Made by a program: the position numbers and the translations under genes. Positions 16,585-34,809 of a stretch of 64,000 nt of DNA are shown piece by piece (position 1 is the first letter of the stretch; each line of letters begins with the position of its first letter). The DNA is taken from assembly GCA_965197725.1 (NCBI GenBank), contig CBDANQ010000058.1, forward strand, positions 1-64,000. Direction: 5' to 3'. The notes under the pieces are model-generated. The model was not told where the DNA came from and ran no database searches. It was given only the letters and a program-made list of their open reading frames with translations. This stretch comes from Longimicrobiales bacterium. Its GTDB lineage: Bacteria; Gemmatimonadota; Gemmatimonadetes; Longimicrobiales; Gaopeijiaceae.

Positions 16585-17013
16585 TCAGCCAGAAGGACTC
16601 TGCGGTGGCGGCAGGGGCGCGCTGGCCGGCCCGTACTGTGCCCACTGGGTCGGGGACTCCCAGACGCGGGCGTAGAGTAGGCCCTTCGCCATCGGTTCCG
16701 GAAGCCTCCGGCTCAATTCCTCGAAGAAGTACTTCGCCTGGTTCTCGGCGCTCGTCTCCACGTCCTGGAATTGCGGAAGCTCGTTCAGGTTCTCGTGATC
16801 CAAAGCGTCGGCGATGCCACGTAGCTCCTTCTTCAGGTCGATGAAGTCGAACGCGATACCGGAGTCGTCTAGCTCGGTGGCTTGGAGCGCAGCCTCGACC
16901 ACATACCTGTGCCCGTGCAGCCGACTGCACTTGCCTTCGTAGTTGCGAAGGAAGTGGGCGGCGTCGTAGTGCGCCTGGGCGCTGACGGTATACGCGAACT
17001 CTTCGGTCATCAC
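16585..17013 (-). CDS. queD: 6-carboxytetrahydropterin synthase (PTPS-I/QueD)
   Basis: AAHFL, C-x3-HGH (CSRLHGH), LDH, TSAEN and WESP motifs. Confidence 0.88.
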
Positions 17014-17621
17014 AACGGCTGATGCGCGCTGGTCGTCAGTCGCAGGAATTCGTCTCTCGTCCTCGGGTCATCCAGGAAGGATCCGCGCATGGCCGAAGTA
17101 ATCGTCTTGGAGTTTTGTTTCTGGACACCGCGCATCATCATGCACAGGTGATACGCCTCGACGACGACCGCGACCCCCTGCGGTTTCGCGGCGTCCCAGA
17201 CGGCCTCAGCGACCTGCTCGGTGAGCCGTTCCTGGACCTGGAATCGGCGCGCGTACATTTCCACGAGCCGCGCCAGTTTCGAAATGCCAAGAATTCTCCC
17301 GTCGGGAATGTAGGCGACGTGAGCCTTGCCGAAGAACGGAAGCATATGATGCTCGCACAGCGAATAGACCTCGATGTCCTTCACCAACACCATATTGCGA
17401 TGGCACTCCTCGAAGAGCGCATCCCCGATAATATCTTCGGGCGTCTGCAAGTATCCCCTGGTCAGGAACGACAGGGACTTCGCCACGCGAGTCGGCGTTT
17501 TGAGCATGCCCTCGCGTTGGGGGTCGTCACCCAGTCGGCGAATCATCTCGGCCACGAGATCCTCGAAGGAGGCTCTCGACAAGTCGACGCTGCTCAACGG
17601 TTCCACGATCGTGTCGCTCAT
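17010..17621 (-). CDS. folE: GTP cyclohydrolase I
   Basis: [22 protein letters not shown] and HLCMMMRGV motifs. Confidence 0.96.
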
Positions 17622-17902
17622 GGTCCGGCCTTCTCCTCGTGCCCGGAGTACTCCGCGGAGTTCCGCGGTGTTTCGTGAATGACCACCTTGGCGAGCCTCA
17701 CGCCTTCGGGCACGGCGTGGACGATGCGATCCCAGATGACTACGGTGGCCGAAATCTCAGTGTCGACGCGTCCTTCGACGGTGACCTCCAGCTCGTCGTT
17801 GTGCCCGTGCCAGCTCGTCCTCGCGTCCGCTGATGCCGAAGGAGCGAGAGGGCCGACGCCTGGGCCGCTCGGGAGCGGTTGGACGCCGGCCCTCTCGTGC
17901 AC
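17618..17902 (-). pseudogene. Degenerate second PTPS/QueD paralog
   Basis: WHGHNDELEVTVEG and HETPRN are retained; the N-terminus and the central LDH/SEN segment are absent. Confidence 0.65.
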
Positions 17903-18170: not shown

Positions 18171-18200
18171 TTGACATACGCGGGGGCCCGTGCTTAGCCT
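18171..18200 (+). promoter_or_regulatory. Sigma70-type promoter of the metal-uptake locus
   Basis: Perfect TTGACA (18171-18176), 18-nt spacer, TAGCCT (18195-18200). Confidence 0.55.
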
Positions 18201-18209
18201 GAAGGTCCT

Positions 18210-18542
18210 ATGGAAGCGAGAGGCAAGGTGATCCGGAAGACCGTCTCGGTCTGGCTCTCGACGCTGCTGCTCACACTCAGCGTCGCCGTTCCAGCGCTCG
18301 AACGCGCCGAATTTGCGCACGAGCCTGCGATCGAGAGCGAGCACGATCCGGCCCACTGCCCACCTGCGCACGACCACACGGTGTGTACTCAGGTCGGAGC
18401 CAACCTCTCTCTCACCGCCGCACCCACGCTGGTCGACCATACTCAAGAGGTCTTCAGTGTGCGCGCGCCCATAGAAGCGCCGGCTTCGGTCCACTCCGTT
18501 TTTGCATACGGACATCCCTCGCGCGCTCCCCCCTTGGCCTGA
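18210..18542 (+). CDS. His/Cys-rich leader protein with C-terminal RAPP motif (DUF2946/CruR-like uORF)
   Basis: Signal/TM-like N-terminus, EHDPAHCPPAHDHTVC cluster, ends GHPSRAPPLA*; alternative start GTG 18228. Confidence 0.72.
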   Translation: MEARGKVIRKTVSVWLSTLLLTLSVAVPALERAEFAHEPAIESEHDPAHCPPAHDHTVCTQVGANLSLTAAPTLVDHTQEVFSVRAPIEAPASVHSVFAYGHPSRAPPLA

Positions 18543-18633
18543 CGAGCCGCACCCGGCCGCACCGCGGCCGTCCGTACACGACCGACCAGTCTCGTCCTCG
18601 TCAGTATCCAGGGATACGGAGAGCACTACAATC

Positions 18634-20001
18634 GTGAACAGCCGTTGGAAGGGAGCCCGCCACGTGTTGTGGGGCGTACTCCTGACGATCGCCCACACAC
18701 TCGCGCAACCGGAACCCGCGGTCGCGCAGGAAGCGACCGACTCGTTGAGGTTGGAGCTCGCGCGCCTGGCTGCGTTGGTGGACAGCCTCGGCAGGGAAGT
18801 CGCCCGCTTTCGCGACACAGGAGCGGACACGCAGGCAGACGACGCGCTGGCGCGGCTTCGCGCGTCGGCGCAGGCGGCAGCCTCCGCAGGCAGGTCGCCC
18901 GCACCGGAGGAGGCCGACACACAGGACTTCGTCGGCCGACAGCGCTCATTGCAGGCCCTGAACCCCGAGATCAGCGTCAACGCCGACCTGTTCGGTCATG
19001 TGAACAAGGACGACACGGACCAGGACAACTTCTTCGCTCGGGAGTTCGAGATATCGATCATCTCGAACCTCGACCCTTTTTCTCGAGCCAAAATCTTTCT
19101 CTCCCGACATGGCGAGGGCGGGGAGTTCTCCCCGTTTGCAGGGGAGAGTCACGGGGGCGCGCACGGCGCCGAAGAGGGTGGTGGTGGCTTCGCGGTCGAA
19201 GAAGGGTACGTCGAGTGGGTGAGCCTTCCCGGAGGCATCGGACTCAAGTTGGGGAAGTTCTTCCAGCAGTTCGGCCAGCTGAACCGCTGGCACGCGCACG
19301 CGCTTCCCTTCCAGACCCGCTCTCTACCGCACCTCGCGTTCATCGGTGAGGAGTCGCTCGCACAAACAGGTCTTTCGGCACACTGGCTCGCTCCTTTCGG
19401 GCTGGCCGGGGGAACCTACGAAGCCACTGTCGAAGTCACCCGAAGTGAGAACGAGACGCTGTTCGGCGAGTCAGGAGGCCTCTCGCTGCTGAGCCACGTC
19501 AACGCCTTTTGGAGTCTGTCGACGTCGACCGACCTGGACCTCGGGTTCAGCTGGGTGAGCGGGTCGTACGAGCACGAAGCCGTTCTCGCGGACCGGAACC
19601 TGTACGGCGTAGAGATGGCCTTCACATGGCGTCCGCCTGGGCAGTCGCGCTACCGCGGCTTCTCCTTTCGCGGCGGTGTCATGGCTCTGGATGGCCTGGT
19701 GGGACTCGAGCAAGCGTCCGACGAGGACGCTGAACGTGCTCTGGGTCTGTGGGCCTTGGGCGAGTTGCGGCTCTCGCAGAGCTGGCTCGTCGGGGTGCGC
19801 TTCGATCGCACGGAGAGCCCGGAAGATCTGGAGGAGACCGCTTGGCTGTTCTCTCCGACGTTGACGTGGTGGCAGAGCGAGTACGTCCGCATCCGACTCG
19901 AGTACGATCTGCTCGGTCGCAGCCTTGCGGTCGAGCGTGAAGGACACCTGCTCTTCCAGGTGACGTTCGCGATGGGCCCACACAAGCATGAGACCTATTA
20001 G
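18634..20001 (+). CDS. Outer-membrane beta-barrel protein, probable metal-uptake porin
   Basis: Signal peptide, coiled-coil N-terminus, LNPEISV, FGQLNRWHAH, SEYVRIRLEY and His-containing C-terminus GPHKHETY; GGAGAG SD. Confidence 0.72.
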   Translation: MNSRWKGARHVLWGVLLTIAHTLAQPEPAVAQEATDSLRLELARLAALVDSLGREVARFRDTGADTQADDALARLRASAQAAASAGRSPAPEEADTQDFVGRQRSLQALNPEISVNADLFGHVNKDDTDQDNFFAREFEISIISNLDPFSRAKIFLSRHGEGGEFSPFAGESHGGAHGAEEGGGGFAVEEGYVEWVSLPGGIGLKLGKFFQQFGQLNRWHAHALPFQTRSLPHLAFIGEESLAQTGLSAHWLAPFGLAGGTYEATVEVTRSENETLFGESGGLSLLSHVNAFWSLSTSTDLDLGFSWVSGSYEHEAVLADRNLYGVEMAFTWRPPGQSRYRGFSFRGGVMALDGLVGLEQASDEDAERALGLWALGELRLSQSWLVGVRFDRTESPEDLEETAWLFSPTLTWWQSEYVRIRLEYDLLGRSLAVEREGHLLFQVTFAMGPHKHETY

Positions 20002-20045
20002 CCGATGGCTCTGACGACATCGAGCCCCTCGGGCATGGAGGCAGC

Positions 20046-21107
20046 ATGATGTTCGAAACGATCCTGGTCGGCGCACTCGCGATTGGGGCGCTATCGACCG
20101 AGGCGGCGGCACCCACCGAGCCGCCGGACCCGCTCCGTGACCCTGTTCGCGTCGTCACGACTCTTCCGATCTACGCGGAATTGGTCAGGGAGATCGGGGG
20201 GTCCGAGGTCGAGGTGACTTCCATCGCCAACCCCAATGAGGACGCTCACTTCGTACGTCCCAAGCCGAGCTTCGCGCGCGACCTGAGGCGGGCGGAGGCC
20301 TTCGTCACGACGGGTCTCGATCTGGAACTGTGGGTCCCGATCCTCCTCGACCGCGCCGGCAACGGTGACGTATTGGAGGGCGGCCGCGGATACATCACGG
20401 CATACACGGGAATCGAGCTGCTCGATATCCCAGTTTCCGCGGACCGGAGTGGGGGCGACGTCCACATCTTCGGCAACCCCCACCTGACGACCGATCCGCT
20501 GCGCACGGTCCAGGTCGCGCGCAACATCACCGTTGGACTCAAGCGAGTCGCACCGGACCGCGCCGCCCACTTCGACGTCGGGCTCGCCGCCTTCACCGCC
20601 CGCGTGCACCGTCGCCTCTTCGGCGACAGGCTCGTCGAATTGCTCGGAGCACAGACCCTGGAACAGTTGGCGCTCAACCGCACGCTCTACGACTTCCTCG
20701 GCACGCAGGAATTCGATGGCAAGCCGCTCATCGAGGAGTTGGGTGGGTGGCTCGCTATCGCGGAGCCCTTTCGCGACCAACGGCTCATCTGCTACCACAA
20801 GAACTGGGCTTATTTCGAAGACCGCTTCGACGTTCGGTGCGCCGACTACGTCGAGGCAAAACCCGGCATCGCGCCGACTCCCCGACACGTCGGACGCCTC
20901 ATTCGGCGGATGCAGGAAGAGAACCTCGACGTTGTGCTCGCCGCGACCTACTTCGACAGAAGCAAGGTCGAGACCGTGGCCACCCGGGGTGGTGCGGCGT
21001 TGGTCCAAGTGCCCCTTTCGCCGGGTGCCCGCGAGGGGATCGACGACTACTTCACGCTCGTGGACACCTGGGTGAACGAGCTCGCCAAGGCATTCCTGAG
21101 CCGATGA
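20046..21107 (+). CDS. Metal ABC substrate-binding protein (ZnuA/TroA family)
   Basis: VVTTLP, EDAHFVRPKPS, GLDLE, GDVHIFGNPH, YHKNWAYF and PGIAPTPRH motifs. Confidence 0.9.
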   Translation: MMFETILVGALAIGALSTEAAAPTEPPDPLRDPVRVVTTLPIYAELVREIGGSEVEVTSIANPNEDAHFVRPKPSFARDLRRAEAFVTTGLDLELWVPILLDRAGNGDVLEGGRGYITAYTGIELLDIPVSADRSGGDVHIFGNPHLTTDPLRTVQVARNITVGLKRVAPDRAAHFDVGLAAFTARVHRRLFGDRLVELLGAQTLEQLALNRTLYDFLGTQEFDGKPLIEELGGWLAIAEPFRDQRLICYHKNWAYFEDRFDVRCADYVEAKPGIAPTPRHVGRLIRRMQEENLDVVLAATYFDRSKVETVATRGGAALVQVPLSPGAREGIDDYFTLVDTWVNELAKAFLSR

Positions 21108-21126
21108 CGTCCGAGCGGAGCGTGGA

Positions 21127-21978
21127 ATGCTCGACCTGATGATTCCGCCCATCGTGGCGGCGCTGATCATCCTCTCGATTCACGCGTATCTGGGACTGCA
21201 CGTGATCGGTAGGGAGGTGATTTTCGTGGACCTCGCGTTCGCCCAGATCGCGGCTCTCGGGTCGACGGTCGCCCTACTGATGGGCATCGAGCTTGGAACG
21301 ACACCTTCTCTGCTTTTCGCGCTCGGATTCACGCTGCTGGGCGCGTTGCTCTTCTCTGTCACGCGCCTGGAAAAATCGGCGGTGCCGCAGGAGGCGATCA
21401 TCGGCATCTCCTACGTTCTCGCCTCGGCGGCTGTGATCCTGATCGCGGGGCTCACCGCAGAGGGCGCGGAACACCTCCGTGAAACGATGACCGGGACGCT
21501 GATCTGGGTCGGGTGGGGCGACATCTGGAGGCTCGCTGGGGTCTACGCCGTTCTGGGCGTCTTCCACTTCGTGATGCGTAAGCGATTTCTACGCGTCACG
21601 TTCGACCCGGAAAACACCGACAAGGTCAAGATGTGGGACTTCCTGTTCTACGTGTCATTCGGGATCATGATCTCCTTCTCGGTCGAGATCGCCGGCGTCC
21701 TCATGGTCTTCAGCGCGCTCGTCATCCCGGCCGTGATCGCCTTTCTTTACACGAGCCGATTCGGTCGTGCGCTGCTGATCGCGTGGGGGGCGGGAATGGT
21801 GGCGGTCGTGGGAGGCATCGGCACGTCGTTCTACCTCGATATCGCGACCGGTCCTTTGCTCGTGTGCGCCTTCGGGGTAGTCCTCGTGATCGCGGTGGGC
21901 CTTCGGCCATTGCTGGGCGTCCACCCCGAGGGGAAAATCACCGTGCCGAGTCTGCGCGGGGACGGCAAGGCCCCCTAG
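21127..21978 (+). CDS. Metal ABC transporter permease (ZnuB/ABC-3 family)
   Basis: LGLHVIGREVIFVDLAFAQIAALG, QEAIIG and GVLMVFSALVIPA motifs. Confidence 0.88.
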   Translation: MLDLMIPPIVAALIILSIHAYLGLHVIGREVIFVDLAFAQIAALGSTVALLMGIELGTTPSLLFALGFTLLGALLFSVTRLEKSAVPQEAIIGISYVLASAAVILIAGLTAEGAEHLRETMTGTLIWVGWGDIWRLAGVYAVLGVFHFVMRKRFLRVTFDPENTDKVKMWDFLFYVSFGIMISFSVEIAGVLMVFSALVIPAVIAFLYTSRFGRALLIAWGAGMVAVVGGIGTSFYLDIATGPLLVCAFGVVLVIAVGLRPLLGVHPEGKITVPSLRGDGKAP

Positions 21979-22154: not shown

Positions 22155-22607
22155 ATGACCAGCGCCGACAGTGGCGCTCTCAATCCAGAAATACGGCAGG
22201 AGGCCCTGATGCGCGTAGCGGCCGATGGATATATTGATATAAGTGACGGGCGGCGGGTCCGGACACCCGGGTACCACGACCACACGGTCGAACCCGTGCC
22301 GGAAGCTGAAGCTCTCTCCTATATACTGTCCCACAGCTTCCCCGGACACCGCCGCATCGTCCGCGCCCTCAGGCTCGACGAGCGTAAGCGTGTCAGGCTC
22401 GCGATGTGGGCGGGCTCCGTTTCGGAACGCATGACCCTCATGGATCGGGTCTGGCGTGCCATCACTCAGCCCGTGCCCCCACCGAAAGACCCGAATGAGC
22501 CGCAGCTCCTCCAGGTTATCCAGTTCGAGCACTGGGCCTATCCCATCTACCTCGACGGCTCATACACGAGAGTGATCCCCCGCGGTGGCGCGTTGTGCGG
22601 AAGATGA
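22155..22607 (+). CDS. Hypothetical protein, possibly truncated
   Basis: 150-aa ORF with protein-like composition; no motif recognised. Confidence 0.5.
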   Translation: MTSADSGALNPEIRQEALMRVAADGYIDISDGRRVRTPGYHDHTVEPVPEAEALSYILSHSFPGHRRIVRALRLDERKRVRLAMWAGSVSERMTLMDRVWRAITQPVPPPKDPNEPQLLQVIQFEHWAYPIYLDGSYTRVIPRGGALCGR

Positions 22608-33549: not shown

Positions 33550-34809
33550 GTGGACATCGCAGAGCTAAAGAACAAGAGCGTCGGGGACCTACACGACCTC
33601 GCGGAGGAGTTGAACATCAGCAACTTCACGGGCCTCCGCAAGCAAGACCTGATCTTTAAGATCGAGCAAGGCCTGCTCGAATCGGAGGTGGTTCTTCGCG
33701 GAGAAGGGGTCCTCGAGATCCTCACGGAAGGGTACGGCTTCCTGCGTTCGCAGGACTGGAATTATCTGTACGGTCCCGACGACATCTACGTCAGTCCGTC
33801 GCAGCTCAAGCGCTTCGATCTGCGTACCGGCGACGTGATCGGCGGACAGGTTCGTCCGCCAAAGAGTGGCGAGAGGTACCTCGCTCTTCTCAAGGTCGAG
33901 TCCGTGAACGGCCTCGACCCGGAGGATGCGAAGAATCGGGAAAGTTTCGACAATCTCCGGCCTCGCTATCCCGAGGAGAGATTGAAGCTCGAAGTGCTCG
34001 GCGAACAGGGAAGTCTCTCCATGCGTGTCATCGACCTGATCGCCCCGATCGGGAAAGGTCAGCGAGGCCTGATCGTGTCCCCTCCGAAAGCGGGCAAGAC
34101 CACGATCCTCCAGGAGATCGCCAACTCGATCACCATCAACGAGCCCGACGTGCATCTCATCGTCTTGCTCATCGACGAGCGACCCGAAGAGGTCACGGAC
34201 ATGGAGGAACAGGTCGAGGCCGAGGTCATCTCGTCAACCTTCGATGAGCCCGCCGAACGTCATGTCCAGGTCGCGGACATGGTGATGGAGAAGGCGAAGC
34301 GGCTCGTCGAGCACGGGAAGGACGTGGTGGTGCTGCTCGACTCGATCACCAGGCTGGCGCGCGCTTACAACACCACTATGCCGCACTCCGGCCGAATCCT
34401 GTCGGGAGGCGTGGACGCGAATGCGCTACAGAAGCCGAAGAGGTTCTTCGGCGCGGCGCGGAACATCGAGGGTGGCGGATCGCTCACCATCGTCGCGACC
34501 GCGCTCATCGAGACCGGTAGCCGCATGGACGAAGTGATCTTCGAGGAGTTCAAGGGCACGGGAAACCTGGAGCTGGTCCTGGATCGCGAGATCTCCGACC
34601 GGCGAATCTTCCCGGCGATCGACCTCAACCGGTCGAGTACACGGAAGGAGGAGTTGCTACTCAACGAGACGGAGCTCAACCGCATCTATCTGCTTCGGAA
34701 CTTTCTGGCGGACATGCCTCCGGCGGAAGCGATCGAGTTCTTGCTTTCGCGGATGAACGGGACGGATAGCAATCAGGAGTTCTTGGACTCCATGGCTCGG
34801 GGGGAGTAG
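33550..34809 (+). CDS. rho: Transcription termination factor Rho
   Basis: [38 protein letters not shown] and FKGTGN motifs. Confidence 0.98.

Follow-up and report, generated by a model that had tools for sequence, protein, structure and literature searches.

The first gene of a porin-znuA-znuB operon in a Longimicrobiales genome encodes a 110-residue leader that carries a His/Cys cluster and ends close after RAPP. Lying in a 64,000-nucleotide (nt) stretch, the whole of which is called the window here, this leader is very probably a cis-acting, metal-linked arrest leader of some kind. On balance, we lean towards a zinc-released arrest switch that would act on porin-znuA-znuB through masking of the porin Shine-Dalgarno sequence. 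The explanation draws on conservation, spacing and gene context as observed, and on RNA pairing and a porin fold as predicted. Among the papers found, nascent-peptide metal sensing is demonstrated for copper only, and Roy et al. note that Cu and Zn have no known riboswitch; a zinc-responsive leader, if true, would fill this gap and provide a small, portable test system. An earlier note had listed a promoter-like TTGACA-N18-TAGCCT, a 110-residue open reading frame (ORF), RAPP at 18522-18533, a C-rich spacer of 91 nt and three metal-uptake genes downstream, and all of these lie where it had placed them:

18171..18200, + strand: predicted promoter (-35 TTGACA at 18171-18176, 18 nt, -10 TAGCCT at 18195-18200; 9 nt before the ATG)
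18210..18542, + strand: leader gene, 110 residues, CruR/DUF2946-like, ending SRAPPLA-stop
18243..18299, + strand: hydrophobic stretch of residues 12-30, a putative export signal or signal anchor (mean hydropathy 1.94; conserved Pro28)
18333..18386, + strand: putative metal site E42-x2-H45-x4-C50-x3-H54-D55-H56-x2-C59, from conservation in 150 homologues
18387..18521, + strand: linker of 45 residues, variable in sequence and fixed in length
18522..18533, + strand: RAPP arrest motif, followed by LA-stop
18543-18633, + strand: spacer of 91 nt (40% C, 26% G)
18519..18637, + strand: predicted mRNA helix between the RAPP and stop codons on one side and, on the other, the spacer's 3′ end region, the Shine-Dalgarno sequence of the porin (GGAGAG, 18618-18623) and the GTG start
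18634..20001, + strand: outer-membrane porin, predicted as a plug-free barrel of 16 strands, with helices at the N-terminus and GPHKHETY at the C-terminus
20046..21107, + strand: ZnuA-type binding protein (PF01297, E 9e-38), in which three His are invariant and the fourth carboxylate is lacking
21127..21978, + strand: ZnuB-type ABC-3 permease (PF00950, E 1.5e-26)

Leader and operon across genomes

The leader is tightly linked to the porin. When 52 porin loci were fetched from GTDB genomes and five with <400 nt upstream were dropped, an ORF ending in RAPP or RGPP was found directly 5′ of the porin in 45 of the remaining 47 (46/48 with the window). As such R[AG]PP ends are rare genome-wide (52 of 24,104 long stop-to-stop frames), this pairing is not due to chance. 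A further 29 porin loci, one of them a duplicate of an earlier locus, gave 25 RAPP/RGPP leaders, two RSPP leaders and two loci without a leader; RSPP takes the place of RAPP in leaders L063, L078 and L199. The genes znuA and znuB lie downstream of the porin in every locus with room for them. Within the phylum, a search of 201 genomes located the porin itself in 90, and a leader search of 201 genomes of the order returned 45 matches in 44 genomes, comprising the window, 35 followed by a porin, eight by a TonB-dependent receptor and one by a TolC-adaptor-CzcA operon. Metagenomes gave 68 redundant loci that extend far enough downstream; every leader in them had an R[AGS]PP end and the porin was next in 60. 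Close relatives of the window locus belong to Gemmatimonadota, Longimicrobiales among them. At L190 and L191 a YchF-like GTPase gene (by inspection) and no transporter follows the leader.

A profile built from 24 leaders yielded 355 representatives at 50% identity; residues were counted in the best 150 of these, and the profile itself favours the counted features. The leader residues around the His/Cys cluster in the window are EHDPAHCPPAHDHTVC. Across the 150 homologues, H54 is invariant and H56 and C59 each occur in 149, followed by D55 (146), H45 (142), E42 (140) and C50 (140). The earlier reading of a conserved RAPP leader with His/Cys residues, heading a ZnuA-type uptake operon behind a non-TonB barrel, is supported. 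The HxxC-RAPP linker measures 45 residues in 124 of the 140 homologues having both motifs, and 44-47 residues in all 140. RAPP or RGPP stands close to the C-terminus in 142/150, and RAPP is unchanged in 24/24 Gemmatimonadota leaders. Pro28 is likewise conserved (144/150). The window leader has a candidate cleavage site, VPA-L, at which most relatives carry Leu or another large residue, and this suggests, as far as sequence can tell, that the N-terminus of the relatives is an uncleaved anchor. Leader homologues are annotated ‘hypothetical’, and the present analysis proposes a function for such genes in a poorly cultured phylum.

A leader that monitors protein export in the manner of SecM or ApdA, or that couples translation constitutively with metal irrelevant or merely structural, could also account for RAPP, the motif of Sec-monitoring peptides, for the conserved export signal and for cargo proteins that are all exported. 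We consider this quite improbable, given that His/Cys residues are invariant at a fixed distance, that metal-transport cargo follows in all but a few loci and that no sec gene lies downstream. Slightly less probable still is that the peptide acts in trans as a small metal chaperone, either periplasmic or anchored in the membrane, and that its RAPP is incidental. Export signal and metal ligands would suit such a protein, as would purifying selection: the ratio of nonsynonymous to synonymous substitution rates is 0.22-0.25 in three pairs (window versus two relatives, 0.22 and 0.23), with 0.67 in one pair and 1.34 in a very close pair. Against a chaperone, the linker is kept in length and not in sequence, RAPP is invariant and two residues before the stop in 119/142, and the leader is always the first gene.

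The porin protein had no match in family searches, and its nearest named cluster is labelled TonB-dependent receptor, yet the fold predicted from a 111-sequence alignment is that of a porin, with 16 strands, no plug and a pLDDT (predicted local distance difference test) score of 85. Its best structural matches are general porins, and the model has neither the 22 strands nor the plug of a TonB-dependent receptor. The coupling of a different, non-TonB barrel to a ZnuA-type system, as the earlier note had it, thus agrees with the prediction. With respect to ZnuABC, the A and B components are present and the window operon has no ATPase gene; an ABC ATPase gene occurs in 1/52 porin loci, apart from znuB, and a genome search for ZnuC gave none above cut-off. 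Beyond znuB lies a 150-residue ORF (22155-22607) with no Pfam or NCBIfam match. Upstream, divergent genes on the minus strand (16585-17902) comprise a queD-like gene, folE (GTP cyclohydrolase I) and queD. QueD- and FolE-type enzymes use zinc; folE is kept adjacent to the leader in about ten relatives, a proximity that may or may not have a link to zinc.

Predicted promoter, predicted RNA pairing and modelled stall

A strict sigma-70 scan of the window did not list the TTGACA/TAGCCT promoter, the -10 of which agrees at 3/6 positions. TTGAC is nevertheless found within 60 nt of the leader start in 19/23 relatives including the window, compared with 2.4% of background windows, and TAnnnT lies 5-9 nt ahead of the leader start codon in 16/23 loci. 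The Shine-Dalgarno sequence is weak or absent ahead of most leaders. With the promoter lying right next to the start codon in the majority of relatives, the leader mRNA is probably nearly leaderless and would therefore have no 5′ untranslated region to hold a riboswitch; an Rfam search returned no riboswitch.

In the proposed mechanism, the nearly leaderless mRNA would be translated and the hydrophobic N-terminus would engage the Sec channel. At low metal the ribosome would stall on RAPP, with the His/Cys cluster, 45-65 residues back, outside the ∼30-residue exit tunnel, and by covering the RAPP and stop codons would keep open the helix with the porin Shine-Dalgarno region, so that porin-znuA-znuB could be translated. 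At high metal the cluster would fold on the metal and pull the nascent chain, ending the stall; the helix would then close and porin translation stop, and Rho may terminate on the C-rich RNA. Release of SecM arrest by zinc-finger folding is known from an engineered construct (PMC4571824).

The stall was modelled by blocking a 15-nt footprint counted from Pro codons in the P and A sites, which ends at the stop codon of the window leader. The modelled stall lowers the energy needed to open the porin start in 21/24 Gemmatimonadota loci, by a mean of 2.7 kcal/mol, and in 20/21 other loci, by a mean of 6.0 kcal/mol (L049 dropped). Cognate arms are predicted to pair better than swapped arms (-22.0 versus -18.9), an effect not seen for an upstream control segment, and synonymous recoding weakens the predicted pairing in 23/24 loci. 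For the second Pro, CCC or CCT is used in 24/24, compared with a background of about 52-55%. Such cognate specificity also bears on an alternative in which the same arrest sensor has a CruR-type output, i.e. the stalled ribosome hides a C-rich Rho utilization (rut) site and release by metal lets Rho terminate before the porin. The mechanism is known from CruR (PMC9426467), a rho gene is present in the window (33553-34797), and C exceeds G in both the leader 3′ half (41% C, 22% G) and the spacer. This C-richness is, however, partly forced by Pro/Ala codons and by the arm that pairs with the Shine-Dalgarno region, and we regard a Rho output in place of masking as unlikely, though the two can coexist.

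The probable metal signal

That zinc is the signal is most likely, judging from the cargo. The window ZnuA-type protein keeps its three His (EDAH, NPH, YHKNW) and has Ser/Gly/Gln at the position of the Lmb-type fourth carboxylate; loss of the fourth ligand marks some zinc-specific binding proteins (PMC3851752). The best solved relative of this protein is Synechocystis ZnuA. The leader also stands ahead of TonB-dependent receptors (L145:5493-8245, L149:420-2762, L093, L101, L116, L169 and L211-L214); two receptors tested had ZnuD as best match, below the family cut-off, which did not hold for the receptor of genome G114. At L145 a gene for a His-rich putative lipoprotein follows the receptor. 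Of the two clear Fur-family proteins of the window genome, one is best assigned to Fur and the other to PerR, neither to Zur. A third hit is weak, and no clear Zur was found in this genome, which is 89% complete.

At a third kind of cargo, an HDHxxC-RAPP leader precedes a TolC-adaptor-CzcA/CusA-family (CzcCBA-type) efflux operon on the minus strand (L198, G114:C53:14000-24500). Here, at the likely start, an ATG with an AGGAGG site, opening is predicted to cost 10.9 kcal/mol without the modelled stall and 17.2 kcal/mol with it; at other candidate starts the energy moves from 15.2 to 10.3 and from 10.6 to 12.2 kcal/mol. Closing by the stall is what one would expect if release by metal operates in uptake and efflux settings alike.

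A real switch that senses another metal (Cu, Co, Ni or Mn), or several, would be in keeping with the two characterised relatives, both of which sense Cu, with the CxxC forms that head the same operon, and with His-only CutF-like leaders described ahead of HupE/UreJ Ni/Co genes (PMC9973294). Czc pumps, moreover, are not zinc-specific. Three separate cargo gene classes nonetheless point to zinc, and the operons examined, the flanks of which were not systematically annotated, showed no copper chaperone or cuproenzyme; we give a different metal a low probability. The earlier note had taken the His site as a pointer to a metal other than copper, which by itself it is not: with leaders of both the CxxC and the HxxC form at the head of this operon, the His site is not readable as a metal switch.

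Several points weigh against the zinc-released masking switch. Within the window the effect of the modelled stall is small (8.7 to 7.2, about 1.6 kcal/mol), the fold is not unusual (z -1.5), synonymous recoding gives p 0.07, and even with the leader arm removed GGAGAG may be covered by a local hairpin. Automatic picks of the porin starts gave a weaker signal and were replaced by hand-chosen ones (effect >1 kcal/mol in 16/24 loci before and 18/24 after), and the relatives in the pairing and stall tests are not independent. The cognate arm is the best partner in 2/24 loci and among the top three in 11, the bias at the second Pro codon is absent from the CxxC group (12/22), and the modelled stall gives no opening in two of four TonB loci. 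The change of sign at the efflux operon is seen at a single locus, for one of its three possible starts. Some porin operons have no recognisable leader (L002, L025, L062, L079) and offer natural controls for other ways of regulating the operon, Zur may be missing from the assembly because the genome is 89% complete, and the CxxC forms at the head of the same operon leave some probability for copper. CutF, a copper-responsive leader compared below, is reported to stall more, not less, with metal.

A wider proposal is doubtful but worth stating, namely that a leader family of several hundred members stands in for Zur in Longimicrobiales-related Gemmatimonadota as a protein-based zinc ‘riboswitch’. 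One zinc-released sensor would then be wired to RNA in two ways, its stall turning on a ZnuC-less porin-ZnuA-ZnuB importer and ZnuD-like receptors but turning off a CzcCBA-type exporter. Leaders of the HxxC and of the CxxC kind occur naturally ahead of the porin operon and, together with uptake and efflux wiring, let ligand set, spacing and polarity be tested separately.

Comparison with known arrest leaders

RAPP upstream ORFs are enriched ahead of metal genes according to Fujiwara et al. (PMC12992588), and in vitro arrest, with the two Pro in the P and A sites, is known for CruR and for seven RAPP/RGPP proteins of Streptomyces. The source data of that study (supplement file 8) list, among the rows searched, RAPP leaders ahead of the present porin class, nine rows ahead of ‘zinc-regulated’ receptors, and one HDHTIC leader, on which the text makes no comment; the words ‘zinc’ and ‘porin’ are absent from its main text. 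No paper in which a zinc-responsive RAPP leader is tested or described came up in literature searches.

Against Pfam PF11162 (DUF2946), the window leader scored 8.1 bits (E 5.8), short of the 23.7-bit cut-off, and for this reason is not filed under DUF2946. Weak matches (E up to 10; best 6.7e-05) were obtained for 9/24 leaders, so the hidden Markov model check suggested earlier failed for the window leader and succeeded weakly for some of its relatives. A genome search for DUF2946 found no protein, and the ESM neighbours of the leader include a ‘putative DUF2946’ cluster. In CruR the CXXC-RAPP distance is 45 residues, and five added residues weaken regulation (PMC9426467). The HxxC-RAPP distance in Gemmatimonadota is 45 residues in 21/24 leaders, the window included, and 44-46 in 24/24, and in CxxC leaders of Acidobacteriota and Binatota (n = 22) CxxC lies 43-45 residues from RAPP. 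The window leader thus has the C-terminal RAPP, a spacing within 45 ± 2, an N-terminal export signal (by hydropathy) and the first-gene position of CruR, and lacks its CxxC. Homologous leaders with CxxC head the porin-ZnuA-ZnuB operon in Acidobacteriota and other Gemmatimonadota; the latter read E-x2-H-x3-C-x3-HD-x3-CxxC and are homologous to the window form (profile match 94%, E 1e-7), with an ambiguous counterpart of C59. In a quick porin tree the HxxC form occupies a single supported clade (30 rows, of which 27 are HxxC and 3 have no leader) and, outside it, a long-branch outlier. The earlier description of a variant with ‘no CxxC’ is therefore literally correct for the window and fails as a contrast with CruR, as HxxC stands at the CruR distance and CxxC homologues head the same operon. 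The window leader is probably a distant relative of CruR, and on these alignments its His site is a lineage variant of a CruR-like sensor.

CruR (Bp2923) of Bordetella pertussis resembles the window leader as the first gene of an uptake operon, with an export signal, a metal motif 45 residues before a C-terminal RAPP and a long spacer. It differs in that CxxC is present there, as opposed to HDHxxC with upstream E/H/C here, in its TonB receptor cargo, as opposed to a predicted 16-strand porin with ZnuA and ZnuB, and in that Rho termination has been shown, whereas Shine-Dalgarno masking is predicted for the window. The CutF-cutO system of Rhodobacter capsulatus likewise has an exported leader, the stall of which melts a stem covering the ribosome-binding site of the next gene (PMC9973294; bioRxiv 10.1101/2025.02.05.636593), and CutF is reported to fail to complement in trans. 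CutF has CxxxC and a Pro-rich tail, and with copper its greater stalling turns detoxification on, whereas for the window leader we infer that a metal-free stall turns uptake on. The cluster of the window leader may sample the periplasm, as in CutF, or the cytoplasm, as in CruR. Under the rules for CutF-like proteins (PMC9973294), which also ask for a cleavable Sec or lipoprotein signal peptide, the window leader is below 150 residues, has PP in its last 15 residues and is followed by a same-strand gene within 1000 nt; Ozturk et al. describe such proteins with Cys, His or mixed sites and suggest that some of them do not sense copper. ApdA/ApdP and SecM share with the window leader a RAPP-like stall motif, an export signal and control of the next gene, but monitor export, are followed by sec genes and have no metal cluster (PMC12992588).

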